Shown here: in pieces, positions 13,486 to 43,000 of the stretch
Layout of the letters: each line of letters opens with the position of its first letter
Numbering within the stretch: position 1 is the first letter of the stretch
From: Amphiscolops sp. MND2022
Lineage: Eukaryota
DNA length: 64,000 bases
Reading direction: 5' to 3'
Assembly: GCA_964187785.1 (NCBI GenBank)
Contig: OZ076420.1
Location: 45,880,001-45,944,000, forward strand
Notes under the pieces: model-generated
What the model saw: only the letters and a program-made list of their open reading frames with translations
The model's database searches: none
Told to the model about the DNA's origin: nothing
Made by a program: the position numbers and the translations under genes

Positions 13486-15647
13486 TTTTCTGGAGTCTCA
13501 TTCGAACGTCTTTTTTATGTTCAACTTTTTAGGTAGTGTTTTCCCGGGTAACTTACAGAGTTACGACGTACGCAAAAGTCATCCTGACTCCTGATCTCAA
13601 AGGAAGTTTTACAAAAATATGAACAAAGGACCTCTCCAATTTTTTTGTTGTTTAGTTAGGAAAAATCCTTTCTTAGCCTGCAGAATTCCAGTCTTCATCT
13701 CTATTTAGCTTTGTGGATTTTGCAGACGTGAACAAGACTGGAACGTCTGAAGTCGGCGCCCTGTATGAAGCTCGAAAAGAACAAAATCTTATTAAGATTC
13801 TCAGGGTGGGTTTTGGGGCAATTGATGATTTTTCCGAGCATTTATGTAGGTGAATCCATACATGGATCCACCGACCCTGCTACTTTTCTATGCATCCAAA
13901 CACACTTTTTGTAGAACCCTTCTGAGGAAAAATTCTTAAGGGACCTTTTTTGAAAAGCTGCTGTAAGTGCTTTGTGATATGACACCAATTCATACTCGTT
14001 TCCAGTTACATCACTTCTAAAACGAACTCATGCCAACACTACAGCGGTACTTCAAATTCAATTATTGATGTTTTCAAGTCGTGTTAAACCTCTAGAGGCA
14101 ACAGAAACTGGTTGCCAGTTCCGTTCGAAATTCTCTATTTCATCTATATTCTGGATAGGTTCTTTGATTGTTTTTAACGCTTCGTCATGTTGAGGATCCG
14201 ACTGTTTTTGTTGTCATTCTGTGGTAAGGGTTTCAAAGAGGGTGCGCAAAAATACCAGACTCGATATATTACGTTTCATTTAATTAGGGCGACCATCAAT
14301 GATCGAAATTGGGTTTTGTTTATCTGCACTTTTTCTAAGGGTAACTTCATTCCCGTTTGGAACTATTCATGCTTAAAATTTTGACCTTATTCGCTAGATA
14401 TGGAGTACACCTTCTGAAGGAAAATGTTTCGAGCTACTTCGTAGGTCAGAATGGTGTAAGCATTCAAAAACAACTAAGCTCGATTTCCAGTAAGCTTGTT
14501 TTTAGGAGGCATCTGTAAATTCATGTATGAAAAGTTCCTCAAATTCACCCCAAAGTTGTCAAAACTATTTCCAATTTTTGACACTTCTGATGAAACTATG
14601 TGCAATAATATAAAAAAACCCGGATTGCTCAACTTTCCTAAATGTGCAAAGGACCTAGATTCAAGCTTTTACGATTCTCTGAGTGCCAAAAATTACCTAA
14701 AGAAATACGCCTGAGACTAGGAAACCACTTTTTGCCCAACAGGAATCACAAAAAATCCAATTTTTTGATTGTTTTCCGCTGAAGTTCTCTGATGGCGAAA
14801 CGAAGTACTTTTGCCAAGCGGAAGTCAGGTATGAAAGCAAGGGGTACTCTTTGACCAAAAGAAAGTTTCGGAAAGTCGCACAGAGTCGAAAAACTGAAAT
14901 GAGGTAATTTCCACAATCAAGAAGAAACCTCGCCGGTTCCATATGATCAACGGTAACAAAGAAGTCACCCTCAAGACTCGGGAAACCTATTTCTTTTACA
15001 GAAAAACCTCAAAAATTGAAAATAACGAAAAATGGTTTTCGAAATTTATTTTCAAAAAAGTTATTGAAAATGTTCTCTTTTCTCGGTGAGTGGCATAGTG
15101 CCGAAAAGACGAAAAGTGGCCAGCTATCGCAGAAATTATAAGTTAGGGGTTTCCTTTAAAATTGGCTAAAATGAATCAACGCTTTCCTTTTTTCGAACTT
15201 CTTCGAATATCTCGCTGCTCAGCGGGCGTCTTGTTTGATTCTCGCTCAAAATGCACCAATAAACTGCTGTAATTTTCTTCAGTTCCCTGCACAAAAGTTC
15301 TCCTACAGTAATTTTTAGAATTGGACGAAAGTATACTTAATGAGAGTATCGGACTGATCTCCAAAGTCATATCATGCAATTGATCTAGTTGATATACACC
15401 AAAAGTGATATAATGTATCTCTCGATTAACGTTTTCTCGGAACCATTACGAATTGTTTGAAATTACCATTGTGTCTTAGGTGAAAGTTCAGACGCTTCAC
15501 AAAACATTGCAAGCCAAGCCACTGATGAAGCAAACGAAGTTCCAAGTTCAATATCGATGCCAGAGATGCTTACAGAAGCAAGTTGTATCCTGAAATCTAA
15601 TGCTATCTTCAGAAGAAGGGGCATCGATAAGCAACTGAATTTACACT

Positions 15648-17190
15648 TGTCGCAGGCTACCGCCTGCGATGGCCTACTTTATCAAGTCACCCCGGAAGAC
15701 GACATTAATATTCCAGGACCAGGAGTCCTACCGATCTACTGAAACTCTCAAAACTTACATAACATATTAGTGAGTATTGCTATCTTACTAAACAAATGTT
15801 TTTTCACGTTGTTATGGCGCTTATTTTGATAAAACATGCAATTTTTCTAAACACTCTGACCTAAGGTCAGTTTGACCGCAACCATTTACTTTTATTATTA
15901 TTTTATATACTGATATGTAAAAACGTTGATGAACTATTTTGTCTATTGTGAACCAATCCTTTCATACAAATATGCAATTAATTGCTTGTTGCAGTTTAGA
16001 AATGTAAATTAGAAATCAGTTGAATAAAGCAACGAACTGGTAAAAGTAAAGGAAACGCGTTCAACTTGTACAGCGCTGCCGTCAAGTTGACGCGTTGTCC
16101 CAATTACTTTTAACCAATCAAATTGCGCCAATAGTATCGTGCTAAAGTCACGCGGACGTTAGGTCCAATTTGTTATTGAAAGCCGTATAATACTCTCAGA
16201 AGCATGAAATATTACAGTTTGCATGTATTCATTAATATCTGTTTTGTTGTTGCTTCCATTTATATATTAGAGGACAAGTGACGTAATGTATCAGTTCACC
16301 CTAGTTTCTATTTATAGCCAATATTATGTCATAATTAGGTTGTTGCTATTTTTGATGATGACATCATTCATATTGTTACTCTATGACGTTCAAAATACTG
16401 AGTGTCATGGTGATAAAAGTATATAAACGACGGGTCCGATTTTGTAAATTCAATTCAGTACTGTTGCAACGATACACATACGCACTGTGAAAGTTAGACG
16501 AACTGTCCAATTTACTCTTAAAACGCAAATCTCTCATTATATAGTCTTCAACTAGAAAGCAGAAAGCCAGAGAAAAGCGCTCAAGACAATCTGACGTAAT
16601 GTCCGACATTGAAAACTTAGATGTAATGTTGGGAAATTACCAGGAAGATGATCAAGTTAGAGATGAAGATATTAGGAAAACTGATTTTGACTTAGAGTCA
16701 AGGAGACCTCAGAGAGAAACTAATTCAATTAGTGGAAACTTTAGGTCAATATTGAATATTATTGCGAGTGAGAATAGTGAAATTACAGTTGAAACCAGTA
16801 GAGCAATAAATTCAGAAATTTCTTCGCAAATGTCTAGGAAATTAGAAGAAATGAGATCAGATCTTAATTCGCATATTCTGAATGCAATTGACTCTGCAAT
16901 TGAAGAAAAGGTGATTCCCAGCATCAGGATAGCATTGGAAAGTCAAAATTCAACAAAAAATACAAATACGGACCTTCGGTCAGATGGACCTCATCCGAGT
17001 ACTTTTGGTCAAGTACGTCCGCAAAGGGACCTTAGGTCAGTTGGACCTCAGCAACAAATTGCTGGAAAAGCGTCCCAGGATGCTAAGAAAGACTTCCCTA
17101 GGTTAGTAACGACGAGTAGTAACCAAATAAATCATCAAAGAGAGAATTCAGTAGATTCTTTTGGGAGTGATGATGAATCTGGTTACGACA
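15648..17190 (+). repeat. 5' LTR (1543 bp)
   Basis: Near-identical to 25186-26727; roughly 35-40 differences counted by eye (about 2-3%). Confidence 0.95.
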
Positions 17191-17231
17191 TGGTGACAGG
17201 AGTGGGATACGAACCCACGCATCCGAAGATA
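17191..17231 (+). other. Primer-binding site complementary to the tRNA-Leu 3' end, extended to at least 41 nt
   Basis: The reverse complement TATCTTCGGATGCGTGGGTTCGTATCCCACTCCTGTCACCA reads as variable arm + T-arm + acceptor strand + CCA of a type-II (Leu) tRNA. Confidence 0.88.
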
Positions 17232-17238
17232 CAGCATG

Positions 17239-18727
17239 AATTATTACCCAGGAATTGCAAAAATCGTCAACAAATGGGTACAAGGGTGTGAAATCTGTAT
17301 AAAAGACAAAAGGATCCAAAATGCATCGATAACACCAGAATTACTCAACTTGCCTGAATGGGACCTCGGAAGATGCCCTACAAATTGATCTTCTACCTAA
17401 CCTACCACCAAGTGGAGTATACGAAAACATCATTACGGCCCTAGATGTTTTTTCAAGATACCTTTTCGCCTATCCAGTAACTGACGCCTCAGCCACTAGT
17501 ACAGCAAAAGTACTTATTGATATAATGACCAGACACACATACCTACTAACTACGCTGATTACCGACGAAGGAACAGCATTTACGTCCTGCCTAGTTGACG
17601 AAACTGCAAAAATCCTAGGTATTCAAATAAAGTGTGCAACGACGAAACATCCTCAAACGATTGGTAAACTAGAACGCACTCATGCAAGTCTTAAAGGAAA
17701 CCTTAAAATGGCATCAGGTGAATATCGACGACAATGGCACAAATATCTACCATTGGCAGTCCTCAATTATAACACGACCTATCATTCAAGCCTAGGATGT
17801 GAACCTTCCAGAATTTTTCATGGCAGGATACCGTATAATATCCTAGACCACAGGTTAGGACTCAATCCTAACCCAAAAATCTTACCTACAACTGATTTTG
17901 CAGAAGAATTTCTAAGGCGCACGCAAATACTTACAGACAAAACAAAGAAAAACATAATGCAATCCTACCTAAAGTACAAGGAATACTATGACCGGAAGGC
18001 TAAGGCAGCCCCATTGGGACTCGGCGACTACTGTTTCATTTTGCAACCACTAGCTGACCATCAAGGCTCTAAAATTCCATTCCGGAAGTTCCGGTGGATT
18101 GGACCTTATGTCATCGAAAAGGTCCTCCCCAACGAGAATTCCATAGTACGCAAACTCAATTCTAACAAAACACAGATTTTACATCGAATCCGATTACGAA
18201 AATACACGCCAAACGCTACTCTACAAGACAATCGCCCGGAAGGCAATCTGCAAGCGGATGACGAAATCATCAACCCTCAAGACGATTTATATATTATTTC
18301 ATGGGAAACGGATTTTGACGAATTTCCTACATTTGATGCTTCAAAAAGCAAGTCGGCCGAGTTTTTAGCTGATTCTGATCAACAGGACGCTATAATTACA
18401 GACTTGGACCTGCGGTCCAACCGACGCGATGAAAATACCGATGACGCTACTCCTGGACAACGTGGAAATGAAAACAGCGATGAGGACCTTAGGTCAACTC
18501 GACCGCAGCAAGATACTGATTCAGAAATTGGTGAAACGACTTCTAAACGCCCTTCAGATGAGGAAGAATCGGAATTTTTCGATTCTAGAGGCAAGGATAT
18601 AATCGTGCCCGATTTATCAAGCGATGAAAATGAGGAAATGGTTGTAGAAAATGAAAGTCCCAGGGGAGGGAAATATATTTTACGTCCCAGCCCGACTCCA
18701 AACTTTAGTGATGAATACAGATACTAG
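17239..18727 (+). pseudogene. Gypsy integrase (truncated zinc-binding domain, DDE core, GPY motif, acidic tail); one frameshift near 17370
   Basis: YYPGIAKIVNKWVQGCEIC; QIDLLP; ITDEGTAF; GKLERTH; IGPYVIEKV. Confidence 0.92.
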
Positions 18728-18880
18728 CAAAAGAAAGTAAATTCGCTACACCCCCTGATTTTTACTGAAATGGACTCTTGGGGGGCTTTGACTAACTATC
18801 GACTTTTTATAACTCATCAAAGACTGAACATCTATATCAAACATAAACACAAGAAAAGTTCACAAATATACAAAATACAA

Positions 18881-21800
18881 TTAGGATTTACTACATCCAG
18901 CAACTAGATCTTCTGCAGAACGGGTCAACTCAGATTCACTCAGCAACTGTGTGGTTTTCTTCATCAGTGACCCATGTTTCTTCTTCTTGGTCTTACTGCC
19001 ACTGGAAGATTCAGACTCAAGATCCACTGGTGGCGCGGGTTGAAATGAACCTTTAGGGTCCAACTGCTCCAAAAGCTTAGTCCGTCCAAAATAGTCGACG
19101 CTCAACCAAGGACAATACACGTCACTTAGCCCATGTGTCCCAAATTTTGGCTCTAGCAGAAGGAATTTAGAAATAGACTGCTCGGAAGTAACGGTCTCCA
19201 CTCCTCGAGGAACGTTGCGGAAATATGATTGCACTGGCAGTATCACGTCAACTTGACTGCAGGTCTGATCTTCAGTATTAATCGAGCCGAAAGTAACAAC
19301 TGGCAAGCTCTCAAAGGGTTCATCCAAGCAAAGGCAGGCAAGGCGAAACAGCTTATACAATAATGGACGACTGGTCAATGATACCTGAGCTACTAAAAAA
19401 TCGACAGTGTCTTTCACGAAGAGGGTAGGCTGTATCAGCTCAGGAAAAGTCTGACGCATCACGTCAACGAAGGAACGATACTCTTCAGAGCAGGGACACT
19501 CTTGATCAAGGGAGAAATAGCTGCTGAGTCGGAAACTCGTGAATAACTGTCTGTGGCAGTACATGGCATGTTCAATGGACCCAGTCAAAAAAGGTTCAAG
19601 GTCAAACAAACCCAGTCCTCTCACCAGATCAGTGGTCAAACTAGTTTGATGCTGCATTGAATTGAAGAGATGTGTGACGTAACTCCGTGCAGCTCGTCCA
19701 AAATCTTCCTTATGCTTGCCAGACAGGGCATCTAGAGGCAAGCCATCAGTCTGCTTGTCCTTTACGTCACGCTCAGCTTTGGCCTTACATGCGCTGTCTA
19801 GTTTTGTGCCCAGCTTGATCCGAGTTATAATTTCAGACACACTAAGTGCAGCGACTCGCTTTAGGTCCAGTTCCAAGATCTCTGACCATTGGTCCTCAGA
19901 AGGGATTCCTTTGAGACTGGCACATCTGCGGGCAAATTTGAGGAGATACTGGCAAAGTTGGCGGAAAGTATAAAACCCTCGGTCTCTGCGGCCTGACAAG
20001 CTGATGGAGAAACTCGTTGCATCTAAACATCATAAATATTAAACGATATTGGTTAGGGTGCTATTCCCAAGCAGGAGAAAACTTGACTAACAATCACGTG
20101 CGCGTTTTTGGAACAACTTCAATTTACAGGTGAATGAATCGTCACACAATATGGACCATTCCAAATTCTGAGGCTAGAATAGAACAAGACTATAATTAGC
20201 AGATTATTCAATTAAAGACCTGAAGTCATAATGACCACATCAATTTACCTGCTTGGACACTCCCATCATGGGATAGTACAGAGAGTGAGTGGTTAGGAAT
20301 TCGGTAACAGAGCTCCAGTTGTTCAACACTTCGCGGCATAGAATGTGAAGCTTCAAAACATCAAGTCGACAATCGCGAATGGCCTAAACCGGAGATCAAT
20401 TTGAGACTTATTGTAAAGAGATATATAAAACAAGGACAGCAGTGATGCTAGCCCTAGCCAATTCGGGGTTAACGAGAATCCACTCTAGATCAAGACTTCC
20501 TCCGAGGCAAACGACAATGTACTTGATCACAGCATAGAAGTTTATTCTCCCGAAAACGCTGTAGCTCTTCTTATGCATGACCTTCTCCAAAGAAATTTCC
20601 TCAACGCGCTTTCTGCTCTGGACGGGCAGTGAGAAAAGGGGACACTCATCTAGTAACTGCACTAAAGATTGGGTACAGCCACTACAACACACAGGACTAG
20701 CGCGGGGAGAAATTGCTGCCAAGAGGTAAGACAATAGGCACAACCCTGTTGAGGTCTGCCCGACCGTGCGTCCAGTTCTTCGGATCAATACACGACACAA
20801 TTGACCCTCACGCCAAAACCGAAGATGGAGAAAGAGCATGGGCCCCTTCTGTTCAAACTCAAGTGCGTAGAACCCGCTGCTCAGCACGTGATTGGCCAAA
20901 TCTTCTAGCAATTGGACGAAGATGAAAATTGGACGTGATGAAATAGCACCTGCAGAACAACAAAGTACACGTTTAATCAAAGAAGAAGTCAGTGCTTGCA
21001 CTGGGTCCACTAAGATTACAGATAAGGGGTTGATGATATCACAAAACCTAAGTTGACCTTAGGACAAATTCACGCGAAATTATTATTTACAGACAAACGC
21101 TCTTTGCCCCAGTTGAAATCCGTGAACAGCGACTGGTGGTTAACAACCACCCCAATGTCCTTCCAAAGCTCACGTAGCGTTCCAAGGTTCCCGAAAGTCG
21201 GCGAAGCGTGGCCCAAGATGGAGATCTGAACCCTGACGCGATTTTCAGAGGAAGAAGCCATATGGTCATGTCCCGCCATAAAATCGTCGTAGAAGGGTAA
21301 CTTCACGCCTATGTCTACCAACTCGACGTCAATGAACTTCGGTAATTCAGCTTCCAGTTCTAAAGGGGAAAGCAACTTCCCGTCTCTGCCCCGGACATGG
21401 TGGTGGACAACTTGAGTCACAGGGTCCACGACGCCAAGGTGCTCGTAGCGCCAACGTTGATCCTTGCGCAGATGACGCTCAGTAGCATGGTGACCTAAAA
21501 TTTCTTTTGGACCTCTGCCATTGATCGAGACGTTGCCCTTACAAATTTGACAGTAAAATTTGTAGCGGTTCCATTTAGGATCCATAGGTCCCGAAACGAA
21601 GGTGCGAGCCCAAGACATACCCTTGAAGTATTCTTGACGCATAATCTTGCAAGATCTTCCCACGCCTCGGTGCGAGGTTCTCGCTTTGGCCTTGGAGGAC
21701 TTCTTTGGGTGCTTTTTGGACTTGTCTCGTTGGGCTTCATGCTTTAACTCAGCCAAGGTTTGAGCGCCCGGGCTAGCACATGACTGGTTTGGAATTGGGG

Positions 21801-23184
21801 ACCCAAAGTCGCCTTGACTACAGCCCATAGGTGGAGGAGTGATCGCTTGCATTGACGAACCTTGACTGGATGCAACCTCATGCGAGTATTCAGTCCCCCA
21901 AAAGTCTGACTCATTCAGATCTGGACCACTAGTGTAGCTGCCTCCTGCGGACGTAAAACCACATGAAGTCCCTTCACCTTCTGAATCGGACAAGGGAGAA
22001 CGCGGAAAGGGACTCTTACACCGATCGTCCCGTCTGGTCGCACTCTCTCGCCCAGGCTCAACCTGCTGGCACGCATTACCACACTGTTGAGCATTTCAAA
22101 CGAGGAACGCGCAGTTTCATCTGCCACAACCATTAAAATGTGCTCGATCTGATCGCGATTGAATGCTACAGTCGGATGGCCTCGAGGAAGACTTATTGGT
22201 TGAGACTCAGAGAAGTATTTGCGGATGACCTCGCGGCTGGTGGCAGATAGCGTTGCCGACTTACTGGCTGCAGGACGCTCAGGCTCTAAATCAGTTCCGC
22301 TGGTCTTGTCACTTGGTAATCTCACTAGTCTCGGTTGGGGCGCTGTCAAAGCATCAGCTAGGGTAGACCGTGCGTAAGCATTGGAATCAGCGTCACTCTC
22401 AACTGGAGTTACTGCATCACTGTTTGTGGTTGCAAAGTTTGCCGCAGAAACTTGTCGGAAAGGGGACTTGAGGTCAGACTGACCAGACGCTTCAGGAACA
22501 GTGGATGCAATACTAGGTTCCACAGAGGAAATTTCAGCCTCCTCAATCACAGAATTGATGGTCACACGGTTTTTCTTCCTGTCAGGATCCTTGTTATCAT
22601 CTTTCAGGCTGGACTGCAGGTACCTTGTTGGCGGGTTAAGAGAGATCACTTTCGGGCTATCAGAACTTTGCGTGGGCTCAGGCGAGGATCTTCCAGCTTG
22701 GGGAAACAAAGTCAATTGTCCACTTTCACTCGATTTTTCCACCGAAGTGGTTTGCATCTCATATTCAATTAGGCTGGTCTCTAGCGCTGCCAATTTTCGA
22801 GAAATATATCTCCCACAACTTTCGTCAGACCCGCTACTGCTGAGAGCGTATCCTGGAGCTGGGGCGACTCATTTTGCGCTGGCGCAGAAGTGACACATGG
22901 TCCACTAACAGTAGCTTCAGTGTCAGGGATCGTCATTTCTACGTCAGTAGTCTTTTCAACAGACTCAGATTCAATGGATGGCTGTTCCTTTTGCATTTCC
23001 GGACTGGGTGGATCACCAGGCACGAGTTCGAGAGTCTTCGGCTCAGCTACCTTGGACTTGGTCTCATTGTTCTCCTTTGCAAGTTGAGACGTAGTGCTGA
23101 GATATTCAGTGTCATTGGAGTTCTCCTGACTAATTTCCTAAGATTCTACTGCTTGAGGAGTTGGTTGGCCAATTTGCTCAGTAT
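18881..23184 (-). pseudogene. Antisense, spliced accessory gene inside the Gypsy element: disordered N-terminus, BED-like C2H2 finger, hAT-transposase-like C-terminal region (about 1,300+ aa)
   Basis: Minus-strand exons about 23184-21091, 21009-about 20470, 20383-20249, 20173-20092, 20022-18881. The introns 20248-20174 and 20091-20023 are GT-AG and join in phase; the other two junctions are less certain. Contains CQIC-x16-HHATERH, frameshifts near 22797 and 22020, and one TAG near 23140. Confidence 0.75.
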
Positions 23185-24303
23185 CTAAATGAAAAGAAAT
23201 GAATTGACGCGGTTCACTTCCTGCAAATATGTCCATCTTACCGCAATTTCAAAGACTTCCGGAAGCAAGTTTAAATGTTCATGCTCAAAATGAGTTGTTC
23301 ACGATGGAGGAAGTAGCAAAGTTAAATGAAAGCCCTGATCAAGTTTGAATTTAACAACTTAAAGAACCAACCTGAAGGCAGTTCCATGACGGAAGGTCTG
23401 AATTTTCCTCGTTTAGTAGTCACCTTGTGTTTCACTGGAGTTTCGGGGTGTTTCCGTTGATGGAGATTTCTCTCCGCTACGTCGGGATACTATTAGCTGG
23501 GACGGTACTGTGATCGGTAAGGCACTTTCTAACTGACGTAGACAGCTACCAGTTTCACTTTAATCAATTGGGATGTAAAGAATTTGCAATACTCTGATTC
23601 AAATATCAGAATTAGACAGAAGTTGACCGTAAGTCAATTTGACGAGACTATAATTGTTCCACTATAGTCATGACTAATACTTTACGTAGTTATAATGACC
23701 ATTGGTCACATAGACTACACCTCTTTACTTCTCATAATTAGCACAGTGTACTTGAACTTCTATTTTCGTTTTACTCTGGTTAAACTAAAGCAAGACAGAT
23801 TATTTACCAACTACTTTGTAATTATTATTTATTAATTATGGACGTCGTGGCTACATGCAAAAGATTATCACCTATAACAATCATACCTATATATGCCAGA
23901 TAAATTTTCCTTGTTGCGGAACCTGCCAGTGAAGTACTCGGATCAATTTCATTTTCCTTTTCCCACCTTTTATGCGACTATTCTTTCACCATTAGCTTCA
24001 TTATTTCAAATTCGTCATCTTCAGCAGCCATTTTATGCGATTATTATCATCACGCACTGGGATTGGCTCCTTGAGTTGATGCCGCCGAACTGACCAACGG
24101 TCTTTGAAGAAATTTGTTGACAGAGAATTAACAACTATCACACTTATAACGTCAAGTGACGCCTTGGAAGAACTAAATGAAACAATATTAAGAGGCAATT
24201 AACAACCCCAGCCGATAAATTGGTTGAAAATCTTCTGCAGAACTAGAAAAGAATAAAACCTAAAAGGGAAAAGCTAAACGATGATCCGAGTAAATTCCCG
24301 CGC

Positions 24304-25277
24304 TTGTTTGCCGCTAAAATTGGGGTTGGACCTAAGGTCAGATGGACCGCAGAAGTTTACTTGCCTTACTATCATCTTGAAAACCAGTTGATTAAATTTC
24401 TCGAAAGCAAAATTGCGAAAAAGATACTTCTTCAACGATATACCCCTGACATGGAGTTACAATTCAACTGTGATCCTTACCCAAGGTCACTGGTAGACTT
24501 GAGCTACCAATCGTCAGAGGAAGATATGGATGTTGATTCCATAACCTCGACTCACGATGTGCTAGATTCCGTCAGTGATGATGACGATATTCAAGTCTTA
24601 GCGTGTTATCGCATCAGCCCTGAAGTTCCCCAACAATTAGTAGCAGGCCGTGCGATGACTCGGAAATCACTGAATGTCTCAACGATCCTTATTTGCCAAG
24701 CAGTGATCTAGCTGAATCAACAAGTACCTTTTCTGAACCGTCAAAATCCCTAGTGGACTGGTTTATTGGCAATCCACCGCCCTCCCATTATGGACAATCA
24801 ATTAGCAATCACCCAATCGCTCACTGTAGCCAGATTGCCCCAGTGTTGGAAACCCCCCTTTCGCCGCCGTTAATTGACCAGCAACCTACATATGACTCCC
24901 GCCCTGATGACTACCAGTCACATACTAGGGAAAGTTGGACTAACAATCCCCATATTACAGGACTTGGAACTAGCGTGAGCGGGACCTGCGGTCAGCCAAA
25001 TGACGTCTATCATCCAGGATGCATTGTGTGCGGCAAGAGTTACCCTGCAATCAAGGAGGAAATTACGCTGGCATATTTAGAGAGCACACATATCCAAGGA
25101 GAAACATATGAGACGAGAATGGCAAAGCGCTATGCATTTGAAGCAGGAATGTATGTGGGATCATTCATTCTTGTACCCCGGGAAGTGTCGCAGGCTACCG
25201 CCTGCGATGGCCTACTTTATCAAGTCACCCCGGAAGACGACATTAATATTCCAGGACCAGGAGTCCTACCGATCTAA
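24304..25277 (+). pseudogene. Sense 3' accessory ORF of about 325 aa (one frameshift near 24660) whose last ~30 codons lie in the 3' LTR; function unknown
   Basis: ORFs 24304..24711 and 24693..25277 join as ...GRAMT/EITECLNDPYLPSSDL...; CIVCG motif; the stop codon is inside the LTR. Confidence 0.6.
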
Positions 25278-26727
25278 TGAAACTCTCAAAACTTACATAA
25301 CATATTAGTGAGTATTGCTATCTTACTAAACAAAGGTTTTTTCACGTTGTTATGGCGCTTATTTTGATAAAACATGCAATTTTTCTAAACACTCTGACTT
25401 AAGGTCAGTTTGACCGCAACCATTCACTTTTATTATTATTTTATATACTGATATGTAAAAACGTTGATGAACTACATTGTCTATTGTGAACCAATCCTTT
25501 CATACAAATATGCAATTAATTGCTTGTTGCAGTTTAGAAATGTAAATTAGAAATCAGTTGAATAAAGCAACGAACTGGTAAAAGTAAAGGAAACGCGTTC
25601 AACTTGTACAGCGCTGACGTCAAGTTGACGCGTTGTCCAAATTACTTTTAACCAATCAAACTGCGCCAATAGTATCGTGCTGAAGTCACGCGGACGTTAG
25701 GTCCAGTTTGTTATTGAAAGCCGTATATTACTCTCAGAAGCATGAAATATTACAGTTTGCATGTATTCATTAATATCTGTTTTGTTGTTGCTTCCATTTA
25801 TACATTAGAGGACAAGTGACGTAATGTATCAGTTCACCCTAGTTTCTATTTATAGCCAATATTATGTCATAATTAGGTTGTTGCTATTTTTGATGATGAC
25901 ATCATTCATATTTTTACTATATGACGTTCAAAATACTGAGTGTCATGGTGATAAAAGTATATAAACGACGGGTCTGATTTTGTAAATTCAATTCAATACT
26001 GTTGCAACGATACACATACGCACTGTGAAAGTTAGACGAACTGTCCAATTTACTCTTAAAACGCAAATCTCTCATTAAAATGCCTTCAACTAGAAAGCAG
26101 AAAGCCAGAAAAAAGCGCTCAAGACAATCTGACGTAATGTCCGACATTGAAAATCTAGATGTAATGTTGGGAAATTACCAGGAAGATGATCAAGTTAGAG
26201 ATGAAGATATTAGGAATACTGATTTTGACTTAGAGTCAAGGAGACCTCAGAGAGAAACTAATTCAATTAGTGGAAACTTTAGGTCAATATTGAATACTAA
26301 TGCGAGTGAGAATAGTGAAATTACAGTTGAAACCAGTAGAGCAATAAATTCAGAAATTTTTTCGCAAATGCCTAGGAAATTAGAAGAAATGAGATCAGAT
26401 CTTAATTCGCATATTCTGAATGCAATTGACTCTGCAATTGAAGAAAAGGTGATTCCCAGCATCAGGAATGCATTGGAAAGTCAAAATTCAACAAAAATAC
26501 AAATACGGACCTTCGATCAGATGGACCTCATCCGAGTACTTTTGGTCAAGTACGTCCGAAAAGGGACCTTAGGTCAGTTGGACCTCAGCAACAAATTGCT
26601 GGAAAAGCGTCCCAGGATGCTAAGAAAGACTTCCCTAGGTTAGTAACGACGAGTAGTAACCAAATAAATCATCAAAGAAAGAATTCAGTAGATTCTTGTG
26701 GGAGTGATGATGAATCTGGTTACGACA
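25186..26727 (+). repeat. 3' LTR (1542 bp)
   Basis: See 5' LTR; followed by the TSD ACACT. Confidence 0.95.
26080..26727 (+). pseudogene. LTR-encoded ORF1 N-terminus (MPSTRKQKARKKRSRQSDVMSDIENLDVMLG...); also present in the 5' LTR (16540-17190), where the ATG is mutated
   Basis: Long open frame in both LTRs; in the 5' LTR it reads through the LTR end and PBS (SGYD|MVTG). Confidence 0.65.
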
Positions 26728-29700
26728 ACACTAGACCATGTCGTAAAAAAATTAGGCCTGATGGTCAACAACTTTTTTTCACATTGGTGCCAAACAAAAG
26801 TTTTGTATTATGAGCACATCTACCACGCTCTACCACACATCAACGTCAACATTAGTTGAAAGTTTGTAAATTGAAGACAAAGTTTGGAAAGTTGAAGGAA
26901 AGTGAAACGATATGGACCAAATCTAGCTGCACAAGATTTGAGATGGTAATCCATCCAACTGTATAGTTTCATGAACACTTCGCTTTAACGATACCGGAAT
27001 GTGGGTAGGTTTTTGATTTACTTCGATTGCCCGTTAGGAGAAAACCAATGATTAAATGTATTTCAAGAACCAGATTGTAAAGACGGTTTTATTTGGTAGC
27101 AAATTAACCATTAAATTTGTGCTAAAAACCAATCGATCAGATGATAGACCGGCGTCTGGAAATCGAAGATACTTTTGTACCGAGAGCAGAGCTACGACAC
27201 AAACTTTAGGATTACTGAAGATTCACAGAGCAACCTTCAAATGTTTCGAAGAGACTACAGGAAAATTGGCGTTCAATTAGCAATCCAATCTGAGGAAATT
27301 CTATACTTTCGAGAATACGAATATCACCCTTCGGGCGTCATTCCGAACGAGAATTTAAAAAATATATGAAAAAATAAATTGATCATATTTTCAGGAGTTG
27401 TACAAGAGTAATCGAGTGGCTGCAAAATCATTCTATGCATGTTAGTTAATCCGCCTGTTAAAAGTATATGACTATGCTGTTTCTGATGATACCGATCAAC
27501 CGATGGCAGAGTTATAGTATCGCAGAAAATAGTTGTCACTGTAATGCGTGCCAAAAGTCTAAAAACCCTTTTCCATCGGTCAGAAAAGCGGAAATCGACG
27601 ACGTTATCAAAATGAATTGTGTCCGAATTGAAACCGAAAAAATTAAAAATTAACTCATTTGGAAAGATAGAAGAAATTGATGATTCGATTGTAACCGAAA
27701 ACTGATCGTTGTTACTCAAAATAACGTAACGAGCTCGGTTGATTTTGAGCGTAACTACTCGAATCAATAACTGCCTTCACAACAATTTGTTTTTATTTGC
27801 AAAAAAAACGTGCTGGGACAAACGCGAGCAATTCGAACTGACGTTGAGCTACGGTCAACCCTCACCTAAAATTTCATTCTTGACGCAATCCCCGAGCAAT
27901 GTTTTTGAGATGTGAATACCTACAGTCCTCACCAAAAAAATCAATTAGCTACTTACAGTAATTATCAAGATTTCTGACTGATTATTTACAGTCAATCTGA
28001 TGGAAATAAACTTTTGCAAGAGTCTCAGCGGCATTGCGATATTTTTCCGGAAATAATGGTTAAAAATAAGTTGCCCAGTGCAAAAATGACCCGAATGTTT
28101 GACCTTTTAGGCTCGGATAACGCGTTCTATAAATTGAAAACATCAATAAACCGAAGCAGCGGTTCTCTAGTGAACGGGAAAAATTTGTAAGTAGCCCAGT
28201 GATAAACTTTTGGAACTCTTGATAAGAATATTGGATTTGCCTGGATTTGTTGGTAAGATGATTGATTCTCATCAAGAGTTTTAAGGAAATTAATGGATGA
28301 TCATGGATGAAAACGCAAAATGGTCTCAACTTTCATTTATTTCGGTATTACTTAGTAAAAGTAACGCTTTTCAGCACCACTGAAATTGAGAATTGGTAGA
28401 CTGAAATTAGTATACTGTATACTATACTGTATCAGTATACTATAGTTCCCCGTCTTGAAAAGACGATATGTCAATTCGTACCAAACTTTGTTTTATATAA
28501 TTAGAACGTTATAAATTTGATATGAAGTTGACTTCCAAAAAATTTTGGAAAGTTGTACTGATTTCATTATTGAAACTGTTCCATATTTCCGCTGGAAATT
28601 TTTAAATAAACAAAATTCGTTTCTACGAACACTCCTGGTTAGTGTTGGATGAAATGCATAAGTTATCACTGACTTGCTAAATGCAATTTTCACCTTCCCG
28701 ATTTCTTGATAAAAGTCTAGTCAAGATTCTTGTCGAGAATTTCAAACTTTTTGAAGAAGTAAGACTTTCCAAGATCTTATCAGGAAATTCAAGAGGTAGC
28801 AGGATTAACACACAGTGCTCTCAGTGTCAAAACACTTGAATTTCTTACCAACATCTTTTTTTCCTTTAAAATGATTTCGTAGGAAAATAAAAAGATGTTG
28901 GCGAGAAATCCAAGTGTTTTACATTGTGATAGCAGAGCCGAAAAGGTATTTTTCACAATTATCAAGAAAACTTTCATCAGTACCACGGAGGTCACCTTTA
29001 AACAGAGAAGTCACTCTCAAGGCTCGGAGATTCTCTTGTAATAATACTCATCAATGCCTTCCGCAAGTGGGGTGCTTTACCTACTGACGATCTGATATGC
29101 GAAATAGACAAAAAAAATTCTACCACCAGATTGCAGATCTTTACATTTTTGGTAATTGTGAATCAATTGATCTCATTTACAATTAAAATTTTTTGGCTGT
29201 AAAGGTAGAAACTGTTAAATGAAAGTCAATCTCCACCACACTCAAAAAAATAAAAACAAAAAACAGAAAAAACTGTTTCAAAAGGTTTCCCCTCGAAAAG
29301 CCTCTGTGCTTATGGGAAGCCTTTTCAGGGGCTATATCAGTTTCATGATTGTACGTATTTGTTCATATTTCTCTCCATTTTTGTATAACATATACTGTAC
29401 GCATATTATGACTTATTATCTATAGTGCACCCTGATAAAACCAATTGTTATTATTAAATCGGTTTTCTTTAACAGAAACCTCAAAAAATTGAAAATGGTG
29501 AAAAAAAGGTTCAGAGAAAAATTCTTCCGTACGTCGTACAGTGCTAAAAGAACTACGGGGGTCTCGCAAAGCGCTTTGTTCTTGCTTAATATCAAAGGGG
29601 GCTTTAATTTTGATAAATCCAGGAAAAGAGTCGCATAGTGCCGAAAAACCCCAAAGGGGGGATCCGTTAGCCTTTACTCTACCTTTGCAAGAAAAGTAAG

Positions 29701-34000: not shown

Positions 34001-37000
34001 TGATGATCAATCAATGTCATGCCCGAAGTCACTATTAACGCTTTTTCAAAATTGGGAGACGCATGGAACTATTGAGTGGAATTAATAAAGAATCAAGTAA
34101 AATGCCACGCCTTATTATTTACTGTATGAAAAAATTTCAAAAACATGCATTGTATAGTACAATCCGAGGGTCACCCTGGGTGAAAACAACACAAAGTTTT
34201 GCATATTTCTCACGCAAATTTTGCTATCTATCAAAAGACTCAGCAAAGAATCAACTGATTTTTCTAGAAATTATTCATCATTGATTGCTTATCCGAAAGT
34301 GGCAATGACATCTTTTTGGAAACTTGATATTTTCCGCCCACATTTAATGGGGAAGAAAATCATAAACTGTGTTGTGTTTTTTTCCCAAATTCTGCCAAAT
34401 TTCATTTTATTACTCCCTTTAGTAAATTCTAGTCACCGTGCCATAGCTGGTAGTGCGTCTGCCTGGCAGACACGAGGTTGTGGGTTCGAACCCGTGCCGA
34501 TGCGTTACATTTTTCGCGGAAAATATCCCGGTGGTTAGCGGGCGTCTTGTTATCGTTTGGTAATTCTTTTCTTTTCTACCAACAGGTACCTGTGCGTGGT
34601 GGCACCCTTTTTCTACAAACAAAAATTCAACAAGGGCTCTTTCATCATCGTCCTTCTGGCTCTCACGTGGATGCTCGGTGCTGCAAGTAACGCGTTTTTG
34701 TTTGAATAATAATATAATCAAATTGCCCCCCAATCAAATAAGGGGAGTGTATTTGATAGAGCCGGAATTTCGATCAACACCACTATTTGCGAGGAATTGA
34801 GCTTAAATTGGAAATGTCAGTCGGGAAAAGTAGTCAGAATATTTGAAGGTTTTTTGGACCTGAAAAATGAATAAAGCAAACAAAAAATTAAATTTGAACG
34901 AAAAGTAGAATAAGGGAAAACGCGTCTCCACGCCGACAAAAATATCTCATTTTCAATTAGAGAGTTAAAAAACTGAAATTTTTTCTATGGGTATATTCTG
35001 AAATTGGAGCAATGTGAGTGTAATTTGCCGGTCTTAGCGAAAAAAACTCATTCTATACTTATCATGTAAGAAAACTGTAGGGTTTGCATTCAGTTTCTTT
35101 TACTCTTTCAGCTCATTCAGAGCGGTCCAGATTGATTGGTGGGTCTGAAGTTTCAATGGCGAAGAAAATCAAAAGAGAGAAAATAGACCGTTCCAATCAA
35201 TCTGGGTCTATTCTTTTCTAATCGAAGAAATCTTGTGTCAATAGTTTCTATTTCATTCCACTGTATCGAGTAAAGTAAATGGTTTTTGGTGAACAGCAAT
35301 TCAACAGTTACTTTGAGAAGTTTTCACATCCATTCAATCAAGACAAGCGAAAGTTATCACGTTCGTTTCAGAAAAAGTTTGAAGAAAGTTTTCAGGCAAG
35401 CGGAAGTTGACTTCTGTTGAAATCCCAATTTCGTTGGAATGTTCGAAATCAGTTACACCCGGCCTCATTTTGCAATCGCAAAAAATTTAATTTCAAAAGG
35501 GGTAATGATGAAAACTGGTATCATGTGAGAAACTTAAACAGAGGACTGAACAATTTCATATTTCTGGTTTGAAAGATTGGTTATATAGTATGATCCTTTT
35601 GTCTTTCTTTGAATAGTTGATCTTTGTAATCTGGAACCTATTCGTTTATTTCCAAAGCACACAATCTGATAGCTGGCAAAATAAGTTCTTCCCGTGGTGT
35701 CCAAAGTTTGTATTGTTTATATTGATTTTCTTTGGAGAACTCGACTTCTTCACCATTAGATACAGATGCCATGATACGTCCCAAAGGCCAAAGACCTCGT
35801 GGTGTGAATTCCTGCAATATCCATACAATTGAACCTGGTTGAAGAGGTTTGGACAAAACTGTCCACTTTTTTCGGGGATTTAACGACGGATAAAATTCTT
35901 TTTGGAGACGATTCCAAAGGTAGTCAGCCAGTTGCTGAGCAAATTTCCATTGTTTAGATATTGTTGCGGGAGACGGGTATGGCTGGCTCAGTGGAACGTT
36001 GCTGTAGGCTCTCCCCAGCAAAAAGTGGTTTGGGGTCAAAGGCTCAACGTCACCAGAGTCTGAGGAAACCGCAGTGAGAGGACGATTGTTCATGAAGTGT
36101 TCTACTTCACAAAGAAGGGTGTTGAAAGTGTCGTCGGTTAAAGCGTTGTTGCCCAAGTTGGCATAGAACGCGTCTTTACAAGAACGAATGAGACGTTCCC
36201 AGACTCCTCCAAAATGAGGCGCCCTCGGAGGGTTGAAAATCCAGCGAAATTCTCGTTTTCCAAAAATTCTCGTATTGATGGTTGATTGAAGACTTGCAGT
36301 AATTCTTTTTCCGAGGCGGTGAAGTTGGTACCATTGTCAGAGATCAGCAAATGCAGTTGACCGCGGCGGGAAAAGAAGCGGCATAGAGCTTTCATGCACG
36401 CATCCACGGACAAGTCGGTACACATTTCATGGTGAACTGCGCGAGTGGTGAGGCATGTCAAGATTAGTCCATAGCGTTTATTGTAACTGTGGGAAGTGGT
36501 TTTCGAGGCGAATGGTCCAAAAACGTCGAGACCGGTTTGCTGGAACGGAAATGGTTGTTCGACGGGAAAGCGACAAATTGGCAGGTCTGACATTTCAGGA
36601 AACTCGGCGAACGCAGATTGACGTCGGCAATCAAAACAGCGGCGAATAATTTTCTTTATAACTGATCCGGCGGACAAGATCCAATATTCAAGCTGAAGTA
36701 TATGTTGTGTTTGCTTCAGGCGGGTATGACCATTGCTGATGTGGACGAACTCGATGAACAACTGGATTATGCGATTGTGTCCATCCAAGATGATGGGGTG
36801 TTTTAAGCAGTAATCAAACGGCGACTTATGTAAACGACCTTCGGCGCGAAGGCAATTGTCGGCATCGAGAAAGGGTTTCAAGTTTCGTAGACGGCTTTTA
36901 CTGGCGATAAATCTTTTGTTGGACAAAGAACGAATTTCGTTCTGGAAACTCTCCTTTTGCGACGCTAGGAGAAGAAACGTTTTTGCGTTAGACATTTCAT

Positions 37001-40000
37001 CAGCGGACGGAAACGGAACGGCGTGACGGGGCGAAAGTGATCGAAATGATGACGATTGAAACTTGGTCGGCGACGGCGTCACGTTGCGACAGTTAGTAAC
37101 GTTAGTTGGCGTTTGGAAGCGAAAGCGGAGGCCCTTAAATTTCGTGATAGCTCGAAGAACAAAGGCAGTGACACGAACCAGACGTTTCCATGAAGAGAAA
37201 CAATCGACTTCAAGAGTTTGGAAAATGTCCTGTTGAACGATAGAGCTTGATGATGGTAAGGGGACCGAATGGGTCTGCGAGGCTGTGTTTGTGGAAAATG
37301 TTGAAGTAATGGTAACGTGTTCCATTGCACATTGCGTTGTTGACACAGTGGCTACTGCTGCGGCGTCTGTGCCAACTGAATCTTCGATGGCTACTGTGGC
37401 TGTTGTTATTTCGGCTGCTTCTTCTTCATCTTCTGCTTCTTCTTCTTCTTCTTCTTCTTCTGCTAAGACAGCGGCGGTGTCGGAATTGTGTGTGGCGACT
37501 TCCACGTTACGGAGACTTTTGGTGTGTGGGGCTTCAAAGTTTTTGGCTACGTCTGTGGCATCCTCGTTGGCTACGTCTGTGGCATCATCGTTGGCTACGT
37601 CTGTGGCATCGTTGTTGGCTACGTCTTTGGCATCATCATCGTTGGCTACGTCTGTGGCATCGTTGTTGTCTACGTCTGTGGCATCGTCGATGGCTACGTC
37701 TGTGGCGTCATCGTTAGCTACGTCTGTGGCATTGTCGTTGGCTATGTCTGTGGCATTGTCGTTGGCTATGTCTGTGGTATCATCGATGGCGTGGAAGCAA
37801 TTCTTCTGTGAGGTTCTGCGGGTACACATCATGGCTGTCATTTGCGGGTGAACGGGATTTGATGGCCATTGCGAAACTGGTTGTTTCAAGAACTCAGGTC
37901 CTTGGAACCAGCGAGTGTAACTATGAAAGTCGCGGAACGGAATTCCGCGCTTACCATCATCGGCGGGATTCGTTTCTCCAGGACAATGATTCCATTGGTG
38001 TGATTGTGTGTTGTTGAGTATTTCTGCTACCCTGTTGGCAACAAAAACTTGTTGACGTTGATGAGACCCATAAATCCACTGCAAGACAGTAGTGCTATCT
38101 GTCCAGAGATGGATAGAGTCGAATGAGAGTCGCTGTTCGTGTTGAACAAAGTTTGCGATGCGGGCGCCCAAAAGGGCTGCTGCAGTTCGAGCTTTGTGAT
38201 GGTATGTTGCTGAAAGGGAGCAACTCGCGCCTTACCAAGCGCGAAACAAGTTTCGAGCGGCGACGACGGCGAACAACGGTAAACGAAATACGCGACGGCG
38301 GCGAGAGCGGAGTAGGAGGCGTCAGTGAATACATGGAGCGTTATAGCGTGCGGTTTATCACGGAAATATTGTCGCGGAATTGTGACGGAAGACAGTTCAG
38401 GTAATTCAGCAACTGCGACGAAGAAATCAGGCAAGACTGAAGGAGTTATCGGGTCATCCCATTTCAAGCCTTTTCGCCAAATAGTCTGCTGAATGATGCG
38501 AAAACGAATGGTAACGGGGGCGGCGATTCCTAGAGGGTCGAACACGGAGGACGTGGCGCGCAAAAGGGCTTTTTGAGTAGGTTTCTGTCCTAACTGGCTT
38601 TTCAGCTTATCAGGTGAGAATTGCAGTTCATCAGTGGACAGATTCCACTCCACTCCGAGAACTTTTTGCATTTTGGGTGCATGGTGAAGCTCCTCGAGTG
38701 ACAAGGCGCGATGTTCAGAAGGAACTGCGGACAAGATTTCATGACAATTGGTGATCCATTTAGTCAGATTGAACCCTCCGCGCGATAGGACGGTGCGTAA
38801 ATCATGAATGATTTGAACGGCTTGCTGGACGGTGTCGGTGGAAACGAAAAGGTCATCCATGTAGAAATGGTCACGAACGAGGCGTTGTATATGCGGATAG
38901 TCGGTTGAGTGGTCATCGGCGCAAGTTTGGAGAGCAAAATTAGCACATGTTGGAGAGCATTTGGCTCCAAACACGAAGCGAAGATATTCGAAGAATTGGG
39001 GATCGTTTTCGCCCCAGAGGAAGCGGAGGAATTTGCGATCATCTGGGAGTACGGAAACTTGCATATACATGGCTTCAATGTCGGCGGAAAGCGGGTACTT
39101 ATTTTCGCGAAATCGGAGGATGATTCCAAGAAGGTTGGCTAGTAGGTCGGGACCAGTAAGAAGCATGTCATTCAGACACACTCCTTTATATTTGGCTCGA
39201 GCGTTGGAAACTCGTCGGAGTTTTCCAGGTTTAATCGGACGAAGAATTCCGTGTTCTGGTAGGAGCCATCCAGTGGATGGAATGTCATTAGCGGGAACGC
39301 GGCGAATGTATTCGTTTTTGAGATCGTTTTCAATAGTTGCGGAATACAAGCTGAGAGTGGCTGGGTCCTGATTGAGTCGTTGTTTCAATTTCTTGAATTG
39401 TTGAATGGTGGCGGCGAAGTTGTTCGGAAGTTCGGCGTTCGGCTTCCAGAGCAACCCTACTTCGTATCTGTTGTCAACGAAGCGAACGGTGTCTCTAAGT
39501 GTTTTAACAGCGTGTTTTTCTTCCTTTGACATGGTGACCTCAGGATTAATCCCAAAACTTTCCATTCTCCAGAAGGACGCGAGAAGATCGTATAAGTCGT
39601 CATCGTCGTGATGATTGTCGGTGGACGTGAGACAGTGGAACGTTGTGGCATGGAAAGTTGATTGATGATAACGGCTTTCATGGGGACCGCCGATGGTCCA
39701 ACCTATGTTAGTTAGGACGGCGCGCGGTGCGTTCGGAGGACCTTTGAAGACAGTTCGAGCGGTGATAAGATCGAAATTGTCTTGTCCCAAGATGAGTCCG
39801 ATCTGGTTGCTGAGAAGCTGCGGAAACTTGACACCTTGAAGGTGAGGAAATTGTTGACAGATTGCATTGAGAAAAGAGGTATCAACGTCGGCGAGATTGA
39901 ATGACGGCAAAACGAAAGTGTGGTTGATGGTGAAACTTTCAGCGGTGTTACCGAAAGGGTGAATTTTCACTGAAACCATGTTTGCTTCCAGTGATTTGGA

Positions 40001-43000
40001 CTCGTGAAACCCTCCAATGTCGAGTTTCACAGCAGGTCCGGTGATTTTGCATTGCAAAGAGTGAGCAACGTTTGAAAGTAGATAACTACATGTGCTTCCT
40101 GAATCGAGGAAAGCGTAGGTTGAAATGAAGGTGTTTTCATTTTCCAAAGTCACTGGTACCACCATCAAAAGGGCACCAACACTTGTAATGTCAGGTGGAG
40201 GTGGGCTTGTAGATGATTGGTTACCAGCAAGCTGAGTGTTTTGTAGTGGCTTCTTGGTGTTGGCGAAAGATTTTGTTGTAGATTTGGAATTGCGGTTGTT
40301 GTCGTTGGACTGCTGACTATGTTGTCGGGGAGTTTGCAGTATATTGTCGTCGTGTAGGGTTGTATGATGTTTGCGATTGCAAGAACGACAGTTGTGCTGA
40401 GACTTACAATCGTTTTTCAAGTGGTGTCCTAGACAATTCAGACAAAGTTTGTTGTCTAACAACATTTGGCGTTTCTGTTGGAGGTTGGCGTTCTTGTAAA
40501 TGGAGCAATGGGCTGGGTGATGATCAATTTTGTCGAAAGGACAAAGTGGTCGATTTTGTTTGTTTAGGGTAGATCGTGTTGGAGGTGGGTCTTTCGTTGT
40601 TGAGCTTGTTGACGGGCAGTTATCGGGGCTATATGGGAGATTATCGCAAGCGAGTGCAAATTGTCGCATCCAAACGTTGAAATGGATGAGGCTCGGTTGT
40701 TGCAAGTTGTTAGTCACCGCATACTGTGACCATTGTAGTCGTTGAACAGGCGGCAACTTGTTCACAGCAAATTGAACGTACAGTGTTGAGTTCAGGTCAT
40801 TGTAGAAACCAAGTGATTGAAATGATTCCACGAGGTTGTTAACGAAAGTAGAAAACTCTGTAAATGTGTTACGTTGCTGTATTGAAGGCTGACGAAAATT
40901 CTGTAGAAGGTGTAGAAACTTGTTAACAATTATCTCAGGTCTTCCGAATCGTCGTTGTAGTTCGGCAATTGCTGCGTCGTACATCTGGTTGTTACAAGAG
41001 AACACTGAAATAGCTTGGTTTGCTACTCCTATGGTCAGAGTTTGAAGATGGGTCATTTTCTCTGCTAACGAAATAGGTTGATCGTGGATTAGGGTTTTGA
41101 AAAGACCGTACCACAAGTTCCATTTCATGGGGTCTCCGTCATACGGCTCAATTTTCAGTTTTCGTCGAGCGGGATGAGAGAGAGTGTTATGTGGCGGTTC
41201 TAGTGTTTTAGAAAGCTTTAGCTGCTGGGTGTCTGCTTGTGGTTGAACATCTGCGGAGGAAAGACGCGTATTGTTCGGCGGATCATTTTGAATGGAAGGT
41301 CCGATGTGATTATCTATCGCTAGCGCTTCTCCTGATGTAGTGACATTTATTGTGTCGGCTGGTTGTAGTAGGTCGACTTCGTTGCGGTTGTTGCATGTTT
41401 CGTCGGGTTGATTTGCTGTTGCAGATTGGACCAAACTGGAGAACTTTTCTGTCAAATCGTCGTATTCATCCTGTATTTTGGTGAAATCGACGATGAGTTG
41501 GTCAGCTGTTGCATTCTCGGGTAGATGATCGAGTAAAAATAGCGTAGATTCTTCGACATCAGCGAGAATTATCTTCAGTTCAACCTTTAGTGGTTCAATA
41601 TTGAAGTTGAAATTTTCTTCTTCGATGGCTCTGTATATTCTGCTAAAGAGTCGAGTGGCTTTGGCAATATGAAAGTTTCGCTGTGCAAGCGATGTTTTCG
41701 GTTGGTTGGCTTTGGAAGGCATGGTGAGTCACAAAAGGAAATTGCAAAAGATCGTAACAAAATGGTTGATCAATTGGTGGAAGAGACAAATTCTGTGGTG
41801 AATCTAGCTGGAGATTACTCTAACTTGAAACTTGCGGCAACAATCTGATCATCAATTGCAGGTTGAAGTTGATGGTTTATCAAAAGGCAGTAGAAGAATC
41901 AAATTTTGAGGCGTATCTTTTGGTAGACAACCTTAACTTGATACTTTTGATACTGATTCGATAACCTAGTCTTAACCCCAAAGAAAGCAAAGCAATTCCT
42001 ATTTTTTTACGAATGCAAATTGAGTCAGCCGTCCTTGACAGAAGGCCAGCCAGTTCCCAGAGAAAAGCGGGTTCGGATCTTTAGGGCGCCATGTAAGAAA
42101 ACTGTAGGGTTTGCATTCAGTTTCTTTTACTCTTTCAGCTCATTCAGAGCGGCCCAGATTGATTGGTGGGTCTGAAGTTTCAATGGCGAAGAAAATCAAA
42201 AGAGAGAAAATAGACCATTCCAATCAATCTGGGTCTATTCTTTTCTAATCGAAGAAATCTTGTGTCAATAGTTTCTATTTCATTCCACTGTATCGAGTAA
42301 AGTAAATCGTTTTTGGTGAACAGCAATTCAACAGTTACTTTGAGAAGTTTTCACATCCATTCAATCAAGACAAGCGAAAGTTATCACGTTCATTTCAGAA
42401 AAAGTTTGAAGAAAGTTTTCAGGCAAGCGGAAGTTGACTTCTGTTGAAATCCCAATTTCGTTGGAATGTTCGAAATCAGTTACATATCAACTTGGCATTT
42501 TCCTTCAATCTTCAGTTACTTTTCACCTAATGATAATTCGTTCGAATTATTATTGTTCCCAGTATTATGCCTCTGTTTTTTATTTTCCAGATATTCAGTT
42601 TCCCGCTTGAGTAGCCCCGTTTTCTACCAAAATATAGTTCCGGCGTAATTCTCAGTCGGCTAAAATCATTTTCATTTCCGCTCACTACGGGTAATGATTA
42701 CGTAATCGGCGACGCTGATACAACGTAAATTCAAACAATTTAATGTTCCAAGCTCACATTTTTCTGGGACTTTGGCTTGTTGTTGAGTCATTTTTCAAAG
42801 GAAAAAATAAAATATACATTTTCAGTTGCTTCGTACAATTCCTTTCTTTGGATTCCAAATGCAGACTTCTGCGCGATAGAACTGAAGTGGCTACAACCTG
42901 TCCTCTTGTGGGGTGGAGTTTGGTCGCTGTTTGGTATGCTTGTCGTCCCCACCATTCTCATGGTGTTCGCATATGCCCACATCTCCTACAAGTTGTCTCA

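Follow-up and report, generated by a model that had tools for sequence, protein, structure and literature searches.

We identified, in a Ty3/Gypsy-type LTR retrotransposon of Amphiscolops sp. MND2022, a 42-nt copy of tRNA-Leu joined to a truncated integrase gene, and found it to be one of a series of over-copied primers across the genome. The copy lies in the window (the whole stretch of DNA analysed: 64,000 nt, contig OZ076420.1, positions 45,880,001 to 45,944,000; feature coordinates below count from its first base). Very probably, the plus-strand strong-stop DNA was extended past m1A58 to a stop at or before m1G37 and primed again 4.7 kb downstream, all in one round of reverse transcription. 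At this locus the LTR ends and the target-site duplication (TSD) are intact, 4.7 kb is lost, the junction lies at the end of the tRNA copy, and the error is confined to position 58; across many families, the copies carry the CCA of an RNA template and form a ladder with steps at 12, 18, and about 47 nt (40-48 nt).

The element occupies 15648-26727 (about 11 kb, forward strand) and is flanked by identical 5-bp TSDs (15643-15647 and 26728-26732). Its LTRs are 1.54 kb long with TG...CA ends: the 5′ LTR (15648-17190, 1543 bp) is 97.7% identical to the 3′ LTR (25186-26727), from which it differs by 18 transitions, 17 transversions, and 1 gap column. We assign the element to Ty3/Gypsy from its LTR/TSD structure and the Pfam-based domain order of a relative. 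In the pol stretch of that relative (94-95% identical), Gypsy-type Pfam models gave the order protease, dUTPase, RT, RNase H, and integrase; ORF1 of another relative matched DUF1759 plus a weak zinc knuckle. The element thus shares with dUTPase-containing Ty3/Gypsy elements (Metaviridae) the TG...CA LTRs, the 5-bp TSD, the tRNA primer-binding site (PBS), and, in the relative, the PR-dUTPase-RT-RH-IN order; it differs from them in lacking most of gag-pol, in an ORF1 that starts in the LTR, and in an antisense cargo before the 3′ LTR.

The only gag-pol enzyme domain left in the window element is integrase (17240-18727, forward strand; 94-96% identical to the relatives from 17240 onward), with a Pfam rve match (E 5.7e-08). 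It is truncated within the zinc-binding domain: the junction corresponds to about residue 1215 of the relative's pol stretch, inside Integrase_H2C2 (residues 1183-1238). Along with half of the integrase zinc finger, the element has lost the 3′ part of gag, protease, dUTPase, RT, and RNase H. The beginning of gag is retained because ORF1 starts inside the LTR: an open frame with the LTR-encoded start of ORF1 (16545-17291, forward strand) continues through the tRNA copy, and in the relatives the ORF1 frame likewise begins in the LTR and is read across the LTR end and the PBS. An earlier reading of this DNA from the letters alone (the sequence-only reading) had gag, protease, RT, and RNase H all missing, which is right for the three enzymes and the 3′ part of gag, and not for the first part of gag. 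The ORF1 start within the LTR was seen in both LTRs (16545-17291 and 26029-26643). Apart from the junction, the family carries antisense cargo ORFs of up to 382 aa between integrase and the 3′ LTR (18881-23137, minus strand), which relatives share (95.5% in common with one relative) and to which Pfam gave no firm match. A second LTR element on the minus strand (35064-42484) has 395-bp LTRs at 99% identity and a PBS unlike that of the first; at 37515-37828 it contains a coding-like tandem repeat of 24 bp.

The tRNA copy (17191-17232, minus strand) abuts the 5′ LTR end and spans the CCA, the T arm, and the long variable arm (positions 43-76, the 3′ part of the mature tRNA); 41 of its 42 nt agree with the Leu(CAG)/Leu(AAG) gene sequences once CCA is added. 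Judged from its sequence, this is a reverse-transcribed copy of the mature primer tRNA: the CCA is not encoded by the Leu(CAG)/Leu(AAG) genes, the copy sits at the LTR end, and it is longer than the PBS of the relatives. The single mismatch, which the sequence-only reading had placed at position 58, is indeed there (17209; T in the tRNA sense, A in the genes) and is likely a misincorporation opposite m1A58. Beyond it, complementarity had been followed to at least 17231 and in fact runs error-free one base further, to 17232 (position 43), which is 5 nt short of the G37 stop. Read in reverse, the pattern had no match in the 1.07-Gb genome. Integrase had been placed within about 8 nt, and it starts at 17240, after seven orphan bases (17233-17239, forward strand). 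These seven are absent from the tRNA and from the sequence upstream of the landing site in 11 relatives, and a search for their origin on both strands of the 11 relatives and of the element gave only 8-9-nt matches at chance level (including one 8-nt match in the element's own LTR). Junction microhomology, which had been suggested as a check, was looked for at the window junction and is absent, the 7-nt insert taking its place. Other copies sharing the deletion were likewise sought and none was found: among the best 40 of 1,910 candidates only the window spans the junction, and none of the pattern matches does.

The normal PBS of this family for tRNA-Leu is 12 nt long (17191-17202, forward strand). 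In 10 of 11 close relatives the tRNA match consists of these 12 nt only, and the eleventh carries an 18-nt tRNA copy; as the sequence-only reading expected of intact elements, none of the 11 has the long extension. That reading took 17191-17208 as an 18-nt PBS, which is correct insofar as these bases are the exact complement of positions 76-59 with CCA, and incorrect as to the length of the normal site. Since the family PBS is 12 nt, bases 13-18 of the window copy were already over-copied. Between the PBS and the integrase landing point, the close relatives (94-96% identical) contain about 4.74 kb that the window element lacks (4.93 kb in one). Another member of the family (L274, the same as L172) has an 18-nt Leu(UAG) copy in register over the PBS with no deletion, so the strong-stop strand of this family does reach position 59. 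Genome-wide, 6,536 LTR-end junctions carry the 12-nt PBS. Longer sites exist in other families: among 30 loci inspected with an exact 18-nt match, 12 belong to families in which 18 nt is the true PBS and not an accident. Families with a true 18-nt PBS (L101-L103, L264-L282) have LTRs ending in A-runs and occur in Leu(AAG/CAG) and Leu(UAG) versions; the presence of both isoacceptor versions implies that the PBS is rewritten by the primer, as in retroviruses. Some normal families (L130, L131, L245, and others) have a box complementary to the tRNA T loop/stem a few bases past the 12-nt PBS (exact in 2 of 30), which may be selected or may be an old, fixed over-copy.

The tRNA-Leu genes were located by pattern search, after ARAGORN had found no tRNA gene in the window and Rfam had called no tRNA on the fragment (as expected, because it is only 42 nt long). 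A tandem array of about 200-bp units (G000:C11:5.99-6.14 Mb; L202-L221) holds 660 tRNA-Leu copies, many of them degenerate, with anticodons AAG, CAG, and UAG; ARAGORN made 630 tRNA-Leu calls in 200 kb of it. At position 58, 658 of these 660 copies (200 kb) have A and the other 2 have C; none has T, in agreement with the prediction of the sequence-only reading that the genes carry A58. Exact genome-wide matches with a base other than A at this position number 10, namely nine LTR-fused copies (eight with T, one with C) and one Leu(CAA) gene with C; thus, neither the 660 array copies nor these 10 matches include a tRNA-Leu gene with T58, and all eight exact T58 matches are LTR-fused. Five array matches followed by CCA were dropped as over-copies, being genes with CCA by chance. 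An extension of the window match to 45 nt by way of four degenerate Leu(UAG) array copies with T42 was also rejected: the stem is mismatched, and positions 39 and 38 fail.

Over-copying recurs throughout the genome. In 60 of the 6,536 junctions the match to the tRNA is 18 nt or longer, against about 1.6 that a hand calculation predicts by chance; about 40 of them end at 18 nt and about 20 run on into the T arm. One locus within the group of about 40 (G000:C11:50420519-50432958) is a tandem array in which an LTR end carrying an 18-nt tRNA copy is repeated seven times at intervals of about 2 kb. A pattern search allowing up to two mismatches returned 65 matches (39 in the tRNA array and 26 outside). 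The 26 matches outside the array represent 24 events from many families, after one tandem duplicate and one fold-back arm were merged; events were counted as separate when their LTR ends or downstream sequences differed. One candidate (L075) was dropped as a T58 read-through: the bases in question are already present in its parent, which makes it an 18-nt copy.

Position 58 is T in 9 of the 24 events, C in 2, and A in 13. A base other than A at this position (11 of 24) compares with 7 changes among 768 sites at the other 32 positions (Fisher p 4e-14), a background that is slightly low because exact or two-mismatch patterns were used for the counts, which therefore also miss older copies; in the gene copies the corresponding figure is 2 of 660. 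The recurrence of this change supports the core of the sequence-only reading, that strong-stop DNA had run past m1A58, and the error is not obligatory, because 13 events keep A58. A-to-T is reported as the main m1A error of several RTs (PMC11019740).

The ends of the copies are also clustered: 10 events end at 47 nt (position 38), 2 at 48 nt, 9 at 40-45 nt, and 3 past the anticodon, so that 12 of the 24 copies stop at 47-48 nt (p 2e-7 when compared with ends spread evenly over 34-56 nt). In one of these 12 (L289) the landing site may supply the last bases, and both 48-nt ends include a base common to the landing site. A stop at m1G37, raised as a possibility by the sequence-only reading, is thus supported by the series, and not by the window copy itself, which ends at position 43. 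The three copies that pass the anticodon all keep A58; one is of spliced Leu(CAA), and one (L084, G000:C13:33165710) is of nearly the whole intron-containing Leu(CAA) precursor with CCA at an LTR end, the template of which, by its sequence, is an end-matured, unspliced precursor. Packaging of intron-containing pre-tRNA-Leu(CAA) has been reported for HIV (PMC4931115). Copies passing G37 make up 0 of 11 with an error at 58 versus 3 of 13 with A58, a difference that is not significant (p 0.22). At L296/L308 (G000:C7:27524117-27524199), a tRNA copy of 47 nt with T58 served as its own primer, and the fold-back product is a head-to-head palindrome with two LTR ends.

Three events match the Leu(UAG) genes L186/L188 at positions 38-43 and yet carry acceptor-stem bases of Leu(AAG/CAG), from which the acceptor stem of L186/L188 departs at two places. 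These would fit a switch of tRNA at the m1A58 pause: the strong-stop strand would come to a halt there, part from its primer, and be extended along a second, free tRNA-Leu within the particle before it lands, so that the apparent read-through would span two tRNAs rather than one. Consistent with such a switch, no gene with the Leu(AAG/CAG)-Leu(UAG) mix was found among 17 exact matches, and of 21 matches to the 18 nt of the Leu(UAG) type, none extends into the T arm. However, only two of the three mixed events are clean (the third, L289, landed at a site that itself supplies most of these bases); the same mix would also arise from PBS mismatch repair, from another round of transposition, or from a gene that was lost or left unassembled; and the window copy ends too early to tell. 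We therefore regard a switch as rather unlikely.

Using 54 normal elements as a library, we could map the landing sites of 14 of the 24 events (10 events had no parent among these elements); some of the parents are only 79-85% identical, and landing matches had to start within 12 nt of the tRNA-copy end. All 14 sites differ, at 39, 80, 84, 93, 114, 170, 607, 2014, 4745 (the window), 5341, 5708, 6401 (inverted), 7461, and 9316 nt past the PBS, with six of them no more than 170 nt away. Microhomology of 3-6 nt with the end of the tRNA copy was found in 7 of the 14 mapped events (5% expected for each, p 2e-6); among the rest, three have 1-2 nt and four, the window included, have an insert of 4-9 nt. 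Two events continue in LTR sequence, and one is a fold-back. Of the 18-nt copies, some lie in register without loss and one jumps 4.8 kb.

These junctions also bear on a two-step origin, in which an in-register over-copy was followed by a later host-repair deletion whose start coincided by chance with the tRNA-copy end. Over-copies in or near register are known (L274, L110, L309), and an insert without microhomology, as at the window junction, is often left by end-joining repair. Against such an origin, the element resumes 0-9 nt from the tRNA copy in 14 of 14 mapped events (a start within 12 nt was required, and 10 events had no match), and neither the 40 best candidates nor the pattern matches include a sister element with these 42 nt; we consider it improbable. 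Still less likely is that a retroposed tRNA fragment or a tRNA gene variant was inserted at, or recombined with, the PBS: the genome does hold hundreds of tRNA-Leu copies, and one event (L304) has a short duplication beside the copy, but the copies begin exactly at the LTR end, in PBS orientation and with CCA, they are followed by no poly(A), and the genes lack T58, so that position, orientation, and CCA largely refute this origin. A selected, family-wide long PBS of a non-autonomous subfamily is hardly credible, despite the T-arm box in some normal families, which resembles the lentiviral primer over-extension sequence (PMC13191261), since the window junction is single-copy among the best 40 of 1,910 candidates, several insertions with their own TSDs and this junction were not found, and a member of the same LTR group with a long copy (L284) has A58 and lands 2.7 kb further on.

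Under the favored reading, read-through followed by re-priming, plus-strand synthesis from the PPT would copy the LTR and then enter the primer tRNA, where it would mostly halt at m1A58 and sometimes pass with a wrong base, to halt at m1G37. Because the tail has no partner beyond the 12-nt PBS, it would normally be trimmed, or the strand discarded, as in Ty1/Ty3; here it would have been used by accident. Rarely, the 3′ end of the strong-stop strand would prime at a few matching bases elsewhere, and the product would integrate. In the window, the last bases before the jump may have been lost or never made, and seven bases added, with over-copy and deletion arising in the same round of reverse transcription. 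We infer from the copies that m1A58 and m1G37 account for the two stops. In tRNA-Leu, G37 is usually methylated to m1G. Methylation of A58 in the tRNA-Leu of this organism is presumed from its conservation (PMC13191261), and m1G37 has been reported in many tRNAs by zebrafish tRNA sequencing (PMC11417395). The minus strand may have been unfinished, as the sequence-only reading proposed more firmly, or looped out, and the same sequence would be left either way; the six landings that lie no more than 170 nt from the PBS require a minus strand that was almost complete.

The underlying error of reverse transcription is a known one, found here as a countable series of natural fossils. Pulsinelli and Temin (1991) reportedly obtained large deletions from the PBS in a retroviral vector, formed in one round by mis-transferred plus-strand strong-stop DNA, some of them said to carry extra tRNA bases; theirs was a vector in cell culture, whereas the copies described here are natural germline Gypsy elements of many families. 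In yeast Ty1/Ty3, the PBS is short and the first plus strand copies the tRNA, as here; there, the copy stops after 12 nt of the initiator tRNA, and the tRNA-bearing plus strand is described as a dead end whose primer sequence is not inherited (PMC5371799, citing Lauermann and Boeke), whereas here 18 or about 47 nt are copied, and 60 of 6,536 junctions have inherited such a copy. For HIV-1, the plus-strand strong-stop products P1-P5 made in vitro show the main stop before m1A58 (18 nt), and a minor product reaches position 38 and stops at the modified base 37, while unmodified tRNA is copied fully (PMC13191261; PMC8599865). The same sources describe the long products, seen in vitro or in TRMT6 mutant cells, as unfit for transfer or integration, and the product stopped at position 37 as unable to serve as a template (PMC13191261; PMC8599865). 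The ladder with stops at m1A58 and base 37 is alike in the two systems; in contrast to HIV-1, the long products here were integrated and inherited, come from a tRNA-Leu with G37, and keep the error at position 58. In the literature surveyed we found no genomic series of over-copied primers, and an earlier description in older primary papers is possible.

The window locus itself is a dead element, and its weight lies in the series to which it belongs. Strong-stop products regarded as "non-productive" in HIV and as a "dead-end" in Ty1/Ty3 integrate in an animal-type genome, at about one in 100 junctions, and cause deletions of 0-9 kb. The marks of m1A58 and m1G37 would be readable from an assembly alone, even in species whose tRNAs have never been sequenced, and genome data make it possible to test how the extra tRNA copy is disposed of at the second strand transfer when the PBS is shorter than 18 nt. 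More tentatively, dead retrotransposons may record germline tRNA chemistry in vivo, with m1A58 visible as an error and m1G37 as a stop, and with run-throughs representing precursors both spliced and unspliced, and the chimeric copies might mean that RT can leave its primer at m1A58 for a second packaged tRNA.
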